DNA of 64,000 bases from a phage: the sequence record PZ445443.1; one strand, written 5' to 3'. Under the pieces are notes generated by a model. It saw only the letters and a list, made by a program, of their open reading frames with translations. It searched no databases and had not been told where the DNA came from. Below, in pieces: positions 2,217-3,090 of this stretch (its first letter is position 1; every line of letters starts with the position of its first letter). Position numbers and translations under genes: made by a program.

Positions 2217-2642
2217 ATGATCTATGAAATGCCAAAACTGATTCGTGACGATGCCCAAAACGCTCACACCATTATTATGGGCAAACGCATGGATATTATT
2301 TGTCATAAAGATTTCTGGGAAGGAAGTTACTTCACAGAGTATTTTGGTAAACTGGACAATGGTCTGCTGATCCAGTTCTACACCGATGCGGAAAACAACA
2401 TTACCTGGGAGTTCGAAACTGAAGATGTCCATAAACTTTTCACCTTCCTCGGTATTAAGGTTAAGGCCAAGTTTGAAGAAGGTGAGTGCGACGATTGTGG
2501 ATTTTATGAGGTAACAGATTTCTACCTTCCTAGCGGTAAGAACCTTTACTATGAAAGCCACTTCGGTAACTCCAATATGCCACAGTGCTGGACTGAGTTT
2601 TTTGAAATTGCGGAAGAGGAGCTGGCTTACCGTGATTATTGA
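2217..2642 (+). CDS. hypothetical protein
   Basis: ATG with GGAGA RBS; 141 aa. Confidence 0.55.
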   Translation: MIYEMPKLIRDDAQNAHTIIMGKRMDIICHKDFWEGSYFTEYFGKLDNGLLIQFYTDAENNITWEFETEDVHKLFTFLGIKVKAKFEEGECDDCGFYEVTDFYLPSGKNLYYESHFGNSNMPQCWTEFFEIAEEELAYRDY

Positions 2643-3090
2643 TACTGTGGAGGGAGATTTAATCTCCCTTTTTAAGATCGGTGCTGGTCACCTGATCCAC
2701 GGTTGTAACTGCTTCCACACAATGGGCAAGGGTATAGCAAAACAGATTGCCCGTGAGTTTCCTCAAGCACTGTCAGCCGACAAAGAGACTAGATACGGTT
2801 GCCTAAGTAAACTGGGTGCGTTCTCCCGATGGGAGCACTTATCTCCGATAGGTATTGTCTACGGAATCAATCTATATACCCAGTTCTACCCAGGACCTAA
2901 TGCTGAGTATTTCTCAATCCTGAAAGGCTTTGAGCTAGTCAATGAAGTATTCAGCGGATCGACTTTACCATTCTACATCCCTAAGATCGGGTGCGGCATA
3001 GGCGGTTTGAAGTGGGAACACGTAGAGGACGTTATCAACCTTGCCACTTTCGACATAGATATTGTCGTGGTGGAGTACAAAAAGTGTTGA
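2632..3090 (+). CDS. macro-domain-like protein (putative ADP-ribose binding/processing)
   Basis: ORF 2551..3090 trimmed to GTG at 2632 (AGGAG RBS 10 nt upstream, overlaps upstream stop); C-terminal IPKIGCGIGGL resembles macro-domain glycine-rich motif. Confidence 0.4.
   Translation: MIIDTVEGDLISLFKIGAGHLIHGCNCFHTMGKGIAKQIAREFPQALSADKETRYGCLSKLGAFSRWEHLSPIGIVYGINLYTQFYPGPNAEYFSILKGFELVNEVFSGSTLPFYIPKIGCGIGGLKWEHVEDVINLATFDIDIVVVEYKKC

Follow-up and report, generated by a model that had tools for sequence, protein, structure and literature searches.

A glutamine-type macrodomain protein of an rV5-like Escherichia coli phage is a probable eraser of DarT2-type DNA ADP-ribosylation

We examined a 64,000-nucleotide stretch of phage DNA (sequence record PZ445443.1, one strand; the whole stretch is called the window here), whose source is an rV5-like Escherichia coli myophage of the genus Vequintavirus. 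The gene at 2632..3090 on the plus strand, a coding sequence of 459 nucleotides (nt) running from a GTG start to a TGA stop at 3088-3090, encodes a stand-alone macrodomain protein of 152 amino acid residues, homologous to Tk.4 (AdfM) of phage T4. We propose that this macrodomain would remove the ADP-ribose that DarT2 adds to thymidine in the phage DNA, acting as an eraser against DarTG2, an ADP-ribosylating toxin-antitoxin defense found in pathogenic E. coli, Klebsiella and other bacteria. We give this reading a probability of about 70%, and regard it as the most likely one because of the homology to Tk.4 and because T4 needs tk.4 only on DarTG2 hosts. The fold, the class, the conservation of motifs and the homology were computed here, while the DarTG2 phenotype of T4 and the hydrolysis of thymidine-linked ADP-ribose by SCO6735, DarG, TARG1 and PhiKZ AdfM come from the literature; that the Vequintavirus protein has this hydrolase activity and an anti-DarTG2 role is what we infer by analogy.

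The 152-residue product matched the Pfam Macro family (PF01661) at 28 bits, above the gathering cut-off of 22 (E 2.2e-6), and PHROG 335 from end to end (E 1.7e-58). A single-sequence search of the PDB sequences retrieved the DarG macrodomain from Mycobacterium tuberculosis, Poa1p, BT1257, SCO6735 and TARG1, and a profile of 60 homologs matched PDB macrodomain sequences at E 4e-17 to 1e-15. The AlphaFold2 model, computed with the 60-homolog alignment (predicted local distance difference test, 97.2; predicted template modeling (TM) score, 0.91), has the three-layer alpha/beta/alpha macro fold, and the top Foldseek matches were TARG1, Poa1p and DarG (E 3e-10; TM 0.78/0.85). In both structure and sequence, its closest neighbors are members of the ALC1-like class, apart from the MacroD-like and viral classes. 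Since the Pfam, PHROG, PDB-profile, AlphaFold2 and Foldseek results agree, we conclude that the protein belongs to the TARG1/DarG/SCO6735/Poa1p class (ALC1-like, or 'Poa1p-like'). An earlier note, made from the DNA letters alone, had tentatively called a macro domain at this position and had named the lack of any macro-domain hit as grounds for giving it up; the sequence-profile, structure-prediction and fold searches instead bore the call out together, with matches in Pfam, in the PDB profile search and in Foldseek. Existing records label the gene product 'macro domain protein' or 'Poa1p_like family' (GenBank), 'phosphatase' (RefSeq and PHROGs) or 'hypothetical protein'.

Aligned by BLASTP over 150 of its 152 residues, the window protein is 39% identical to T4 Tk.4 in full length (E 9e-41), and the two have three motifs in common. 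The T4 homolog adjoins the gene vs and is tk.4, its coordinates agreeing with the T4 gene table. In the Krischvirus ECD7, the protein encoded at the vs-tk.4-tk position shares 69% identity with the window protein and 44% with T4 Tk.4. From the identity to T4 Tk.4, the shared motifs and the 69% identity to ECD7 Tk.4, the Vequintavirus gene falls firmly inside the Tk.4 (PHROG 335) family, and the high identity to ECD7 Tk.4 suggests that the gene has been exchanged between phage groups. The family is widespread: tblastn found a homolog in 2,770 of 50,697 phage records, about 5% of the deposited phage genomes, including T4-like, FelixO1-like, Vi1-like and phAPEC8-like phages, Pakpunavirus and jumbo Vibrio phages, and an exhaustive search with a hidden Markov model (HMM) collected, with clustering at 50% identity, 1,381 clusters for E <= 1e-30 and 10,510 for E <= 1e-10.

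The genetic evidence on this family comes from T4. In a T4 transposon library passed through a DarTG2 host, no gene other than tk.4 came out as significant (HIDEN-SEQ preprint, bioRxiv 10.1101/2025.11.20.689424). A clean knockout of tk.4 rendered T4 sensitive to DarTG2, while the gene was non-essential on E. coli K-12; the authors named it adfM (anti-DarT factor, macrodomain) and inferred that its product enzymatically removes ADP-ribose from DNA (bioRxiv 10.1101/2025.11.20.689424). The Vequintavirus protein resembles T4 Tk.4 in size (152 versus 155 residues), in its stand-alone build and in the motifs HGCNCFHTMG, NLYTQ and P(K/R)IG.GIG. The two differ in their phage groups, Vequintavirinae and Straboviridae, and in their gene neighborhoods, and the anti-DarTG2 phenotype has been demonstrated in T4 only. 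They are alike, however, in being dispensable on E. coli K-12, for the Vequintavirinae through the ortholog in Bas54, which we identified by synteny. Six consecutive genes of Bas54, another member of the Vequintavirinae, map colinearly with the window, shifted throughout by 76,262; the macrodomain gene is matched there by bas54_0092 (459 nt). In the Bas54 library, every TA site of bas54_0092 (31/31) carried insertions, and the gene counted as non-essential on K-12 (bioRxiv 10.1101/2025.11.20.689424, supplement).

We read residue conservation from the 60-homolog alignment and from an HMM-based alignment of about 235-237 diverse family sequences. Three motifs define the family: H23-G-C-N26-C-F-H-T-M-G-x-G34-I-A, N80-x-Y-T-Q84 and P117-x-I-G-C-G-I-G-G125. 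The first, in loop 1 (H23-G-C-N26-C-F-H-T-M-G-K-G34-I-A36 here; 2698..2739, plus strand), contains the N...GxG ADP-ribose-binding motif predicted from the alignment. Its residues G24, N26, G34 and A36 are invariant among the 60 homologs, and in the larger alignment N26 is found in all 236, and H23 in 232 of 235, aligned residues. The second, N80-L-Y-T-Q84 (2869..2883, plus strand; the CAG codon of Q84 at 2881-2883), aligns Q84 with the catalytic Lys of TARG1 (K84) and DarG (K80) as well as with Gln85 of SCO6735 and the Gln of BT1257. Q84 is kept in 234 of 237 family sequences; among the full-length ones, only PhiKZ gp104, a member of another subfamily, and ECD7 Tk.4 depart from it. The latter has a Lys at this position (AAA, L011:2750-2752, NC_041936.1), a natural Q-to-K swap. 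The third, I116-P-K-I-G-C-G-I-G-G-L126 (2977..3009, plus strand), is the glycine-rich phosphate-binding loop, in which P117 and G120 are invariant and G122 and G125 are conserved at at least 90%. The earlier note quoted this segment as the basis of its call; it does lie at residues 116-126 of a macrodomain, but it is not the sole basis, as all three motifs and the whole fold match.

The predicted ADP-ribose-binding loops, an N-x6-GxG loop after strand 2 (N26...G32-K-G34) and the glycine-rich phosphate loop (G120-C-G-I-G-G125), are kept in about 235 homologs. N26 aligns with Asn27 of SCO6735 and Asn22 of DarG, G125 with Gly128 of SCO6735, and G124 takes the position of D125 of TARG1. With Q84 at the position of the catalytic Lys, and with N26 and G125 corresponding to Asn27 and Gly128 of SCO6735, the site is of the Gln type. 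SCO6735 has been proven to hydrolyze thymidine-linked ADP-ribose on single-stranded DNA, which was confirmed with synthetic substrates; its Q85A mutant is inactive, N27S nearly inactive and G128E impaired. 'Thymidine ADP-ribosylation reversal' has been reported as the unifying activity of the TARG1/DarG/SCO6735 class.

We envisage the following course of events. Once the host DarTG2 is triggered, DarT2 ADP-ribosylates thymidines in single-stranded phage DNA and replication is blocked. The phage macrodomain would then serve as an orphan, 'antitoxin-like' eraser: its two glycine-rich loops would hold the ADP-ribose moiety, and hydrolysis of the glycosidic bond between ribose and thymine would set ADP-ribose free and leave the DNA restored. 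Catalysis would be of the SCO6735 type, with the distal ribose and a water molecule placed by Gln84, itself held by Asn26, and would dispense with the Lys of DarG and TARG1. The earlier note had suggested that phage macrodomains could remove ADP-ribose marks; this suggestion is supported, as it agrees with the genetics of T4 Tk.4/AdfM on DarTG2 and with the biochemistry of SCO6735, DarG, TARG1 and the chimallivirus AdfM.

The absence of the DarG/TARG1 Lys raises the question of whether the protein is an enzyme at all, and not mainly a non-catalytic inhibitor that binds and blocks DarT2, or a plain binder of ADP-ribose; that the catalytically dead Q85A variant of SCO6735 still inhibits DarT in vitro also speaks for this. 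We nevertheless consider such a role very improbable. N26, Q84 and both glycine loops are near-invariant in about 235 homologs, which speaks for a conserved active site; SCO6735, also of the Gln type, is an active enzyme; and the C-terminal domain with which DarG binds DarT is absent.

We compared the window protein with the macrodomains already known to act on DarT2 marks or related substrates. It is not a DarG antitoxin: its score of 45 bits compares with a cut-off of 250, it lacks the C-terminal DarT-binding domain and the catalytic Lys, and there is no darT among the ten flanking genes. In detail, the DarG equivalog model NF048014 of NCBIfam gave 45.3 bits against its cut-off of 250, covering only model positions 3-141 of 338, and the DarG model of PADLOC gave 46 bits over positions 4-142 of 329. 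In contrast to the DarG macrodomains of M. tuberculosis (5M3I) and Thermus aquaticus (5M31/5M3E), of which the latter has K80 within P-T-K, the window protein has Gln84 within Y-T-Q; it probably works like the DarG macrodomain by way of this Gln variant of the active site. The chimallivirus AdfM, PhiKZ gp104, is a stand-alone phage macrodomain that removes DarT2 marks from DNA (Cell Rep 2026, PMC13309987). The window protein shares with it the phage origin and the stand-alone build, and a counter-role against DarTG2 is documented for gp104. However, gp104 is DarG2-like, scoring 133-138 bits with the DarG models compared with 45-46 bits for the window protein, has an FPTK motif with Lys78, and is targeted to the phage nucleus. 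We therefore rejected membership in the chimallivirus AdfM group, given an identity of about 20% and the Lys-type N23/K78 site of that subfamily; the hhalign probability of 97.6 reflects relatedness at the superfamily level only.

The orphan Gln-type macrodomains SCO6735 (PDB 5E3B) and BT1257 (2FG1/2AFC) are 23-26% identical to the window protein and have NMIGQ in place of its NLYTQ; they are cellular proteins, of Streptomyces coelicolor and Bacteroides, respectively, and lack the short loop lengths of the phage family. Lys84 and Asp125 of TARG1/OARD1 (4J5R) are replaced by Gln84 and Gly124. Yeast Poa1p (6LFQ) carries Ser where the window protein has this Gln, and its chain has an insertion ahead of the last loop. 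Of the active-site residues of Poa1p (His23, Ser30 and Phe152) the phage family keeps His23 (232 of 235); the window protein has a Thr at 30, a position variable in the family, and Gly124 as the equivalent of Phe152. We also considered ICP1 AdfB and RB69 AdfA as analogs and set them aside, as neither is described as a macrodomain and AdfB has 77 residues and no predicted enzymatic activity; the CmdTAC paper, in which we looked for a link to macrodomains, contains none. In the same subfamily, Bas60-62, three other Vequintavirinae, encode a NADAR protein (AdfN-Bas60) directed against DarTG1, so that some Vequintavirinae may have an eraser for each of two DNA marks, ADP-ribosylation on guanine and on thymine; in the window, as far as it was looked through, no NADAR gene was seen.

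An additional correlation supports the eraser reading. DarTG2 restricts phage T5, whose whole genome, searched in six frames with the HMM, yielded no family member at E <= 10 (controls: window, 3.8e-62; T4, 1.2e-50).

Several points weigh on the other side. We found no literature report of a Vequintavirus on DarTG2, the Bas54 library included, and no experiment on any Vequintavirus protein. The evidence on T4 Tk.4 is genetic only, with the enzymatic step inferred by its authors, and stands in a preprint (bioRxiv 10.1101/2025.11.20.689424). Since the window protein is only 39% identical to T4 Tk.4, its specificity could differ, and it has neither the DarT-binding domain nor the catalytic Lys of a genuine DarG. 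The class is also promiscuous, in that TARG1 and SCO6735 act on protein-linked ADP-ribose as well and Poa1p acts on ADP-ribose-1''-phosphate. Finally, another substrate could come from the Sir2-cREC-RNA ligase cluster of the same phage.

This cluster (53953-57805) looks, by its sequence, like an NAD-dependent RNA repair system. On the minus strand it comprises a gene without a Pfam match (53953..54666), annotated in phage APECc02 as a nucleotide pyrophosphohydrolase, and genes for a Sir2-family protein (54680..55441; PF02146, E 5.5e-27), a protein with a cREC cyclic-phosphate-processing domain (55450..55800) and an Rnl1-type RNA ligase (55797..56732); on the plus strand it continues with an AAA_33 kinase (56776..57243) and a metallophosphoesterase (57146..57805). 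Iyer et al. 2022 described the same neighborhood as 'prototyped by Escherichia phage V5' and proposed a KptA-like role in RNA repair for the sirtuin. Sir2 homologs were present in 1,020 phage records, including T5-like phages. The macrodomain might accordingly be a Poa1p-like phosphatase that finishes the phage's own NAD-dependent RNA repair: Sir2, acting like KptA/Tpt1, would strip cleaved tRNA of its 2'-phosphates, the ADP-ribose 1''-2'' cyclic phosphate so formed would be opened by the cREC protein, and the macrodomain would then take off the 1''-phosphate. The pathway would thus end in ADP-ribose-1''-phosphate, the substrate of Poa1p, which is among the closest structural relatives of the window protein. 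This is the main competitor of the eraser reading, and we consider it unlikely. The macrodomain gene lies about 51 kb from the Sir2-cREC cluster and on the opposite strand, and Iyer et al. 2022 note that no adjacent Macro gene accompanies the sirtuins. T5 has a Sir2 gene and, genome-wide, no Tk.4-type macrodomain, and the sole known phenotype of the family is on DarTG2. Conversely, to our knowledge, T4 has Tk.4 and no sirtuin, and phosphatase activity on ADP-ribose-1''-phosphate is a common in vitro side activity of macrodomains.

A different target altogether, namely ADP-ribose on protein or RNA, or O-acetyl-ADP-ribose, would make the protein a hydrolase against other ADP-ribosylating defenses or toxins, or one that handles products of the phage Sir2. 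TARG1 and SCO6735 remove protein-linked ADP-ribose too, some sources annotate homologs as O-acetyl-ADP-ribose deacetylase, and, according to the literature, macrodomains occur in about 41% of myoviruses and in many contexts. The occurrence of a toxin-free bacterial member in an ordinary chromosomal context also suggests housekeeping substrates. This Tk.4-type member, from a metagenome-assembled genome of the Pseudomonadota (GCA_038532975.1, L007:5528-7223), has no DarT in its surroundings and lies directly upstream of a gene of the Exo_endo_phos (PF03372) nuclease/phosphatase family. Orphan cellular versions of Tk.4-type macrodomains thus exist, as with SCO6735, and there are hints of a cellular role of the DNA-repair type for orphan Gln-type macrodomains. 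We rate such alternative substrates as improbable for the window protein. Its ten neighbors, none with a Pfam match, include no ADP-ribosyltransferase or recognizable partner, the T4 screen picked tk.4 specifically with DarTG2, and reversal of thymidine ADP-ribosylation is the activity reported to unify the class.

The earlier note had also suggested that such a protein might degrade ADP-ribose-derived signals, and this part of it found no support. That the protein breaks down or soaks up ADP-ribose-derived immune signals, for example the cyclic ADP-ribose isomers of Thoeris, as an enzyme or sponge appears to us a distant prospect; nothing specific favors it, nor does anything specific favor the protein- or RNA-linked, O-acetyl-ADP-ribose and binding-only alternatives. 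The eraser reading could also be widened: the Tk.4-type phage macrodomains might form a separate Gln-type lineage with substrates wider than, or different from, DarT2-modified DNA, and in Vequintaviruses the protein might be both a thymidine eraser and the Poa1p-like last step of tRNA repair. We regard this extension as doubtful. If it were true, one enzyme would link DNA-directed and RNA-directed counter-defense.

Returning to the gene itself, the open reading frame (ORF) in plus frame 1 spans 2551-3090, and the macrodomain coding sequence begins inside it. GTG 2632 is almost certainly the true start. A Shine-Dalgarno-like GAGGAG, read from the sequence, lies 10 nt before it (2616..2621, plus strand), nearly all of the 60 aligned homologs begin within a few residues of this position, and the same 459-nt coding sequence is annotated in HdK5, rV5_ev168, APECc02, Bas48 and Bas49. 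We rejected a start at ATG 2551 (179 residues), which would overlap the upstream gene by 92 nt and is disfavored by the homolog starts and the related annotations; two minus-strand ORFs that overlap the macrodomain gene (2965..3126 and 2973..3143) were disregarded as unsupported. The region is well conserved among close relatives: positions 2000-4000 of the window share 99.5% identity with phages such as naswa, magaca, APECc02 and HdK5, and matches occur in 118 phage records.

Because the macrodomain start overlaps the final codons and stop of the upstream gene (2217..2642, plus strand; overlap 2632-2642), the two genes appear to be translationally coupled. They are probably co-transcribed as well, for which the sigma-70-like promoter at 2066..2094 (plus strand; TTTACA-17-TATAAT, 11/12 in a consensus scan) is a candidate. 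The upstream gene encodes 141 residues (PHROG 8157, function unknown; no Pfam match) and is not a conserved partner, the upstream gene in T4 and ECD7 being vs. Other near-consensus sigma-70-like sites lie at 3087-3115 and 3541-3568, and a terminator at 1391-1412. The macrodomain gene sits in a same-strand run of small genes with 24 sigma-70-like promoters, compared with 11.6 +/- 2.7 expected, from which we consider that it is probably expressed early, by the host RNA polymerase from host-type promoters. When a partner gene was sought among the ten neighbors, the PHROGs assigned to them were all of unknown function, except for one homing endonuclease.

This free-standing HNH/EndoVII-type homing endonuclease gene (752..1375; PHROG 1035, E 7e-41) is carried by a segment of about 650 bp (732-1383), which is present in rV5_ev168 and Bas54 and is missing from HdK5, where 12 bp stand instead. 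The segment overlaps by 29 nt the end of the gene upstream of it, a gene that is essential in Bas54; the Bas54 counterpart of the endonuclease, bas54_0088 ('putative homing endonuclease'), is non-essential.

Two further features of the window lie apart from these genes. The stretch of about 15700-18300, around a switch in transcription direction, contains few short annotated genes (with a gap at about 15735-17400) and is probably the counterpart of an intergenic region of about 2 kb in Bas54 that tolerates no transposon insertions (bioRxiv 10.1101/2025.11.20.689424). A scan of 15.7-18.3 kb with Rfam gave no match at E <= 0.1, and only short ORFs and one ORF of 139 residues (15742..16161) were present; the stretch could be a replication origin or specify an unknown RNA. 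Seven tRNA-like genes, Arg-TCT, Tyr-GTA, Ser-TGA, Thr-TGT, Met-CAT and Pro-TGG among them, are found at 60743-61555; the cluster includes an odd 99-nt element (61212-61310), to which ARAGORN assigned a four-base anticodon 'atcc'. In APECc02 only five of the seven are annotated, one of them as a pseudo-tRNA.

Public annotation already showed the macrodomain, and work on T4 in 2025 assigned the family its function. Our analysis adds the link, made by sequence, between the Vequintavirus gene and Tk.4/AdfM, the near-invariant Gln-type active site that sets the Tk.4-type family apart from DarG and the chimallivirus AdfM, and the alternative offered by the Sir2-cREC cluster, which is specific to the rV5-like phage group. 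These results are useful for annotation and for the choice of mutants and open no new kind of biology. If the assignment is right, a ready-made counter to DarTG2 would be present in rV5-like phages, a widely isolated group with broad host ranges that is a candidate for E. coli therapy and biocontrol. The genetically defined AdfM of T4 would then extend to a very large phage protein family, which would work without the catalytic Lys of DarG, through a Gln arrangement so far studied only in SCO6735.
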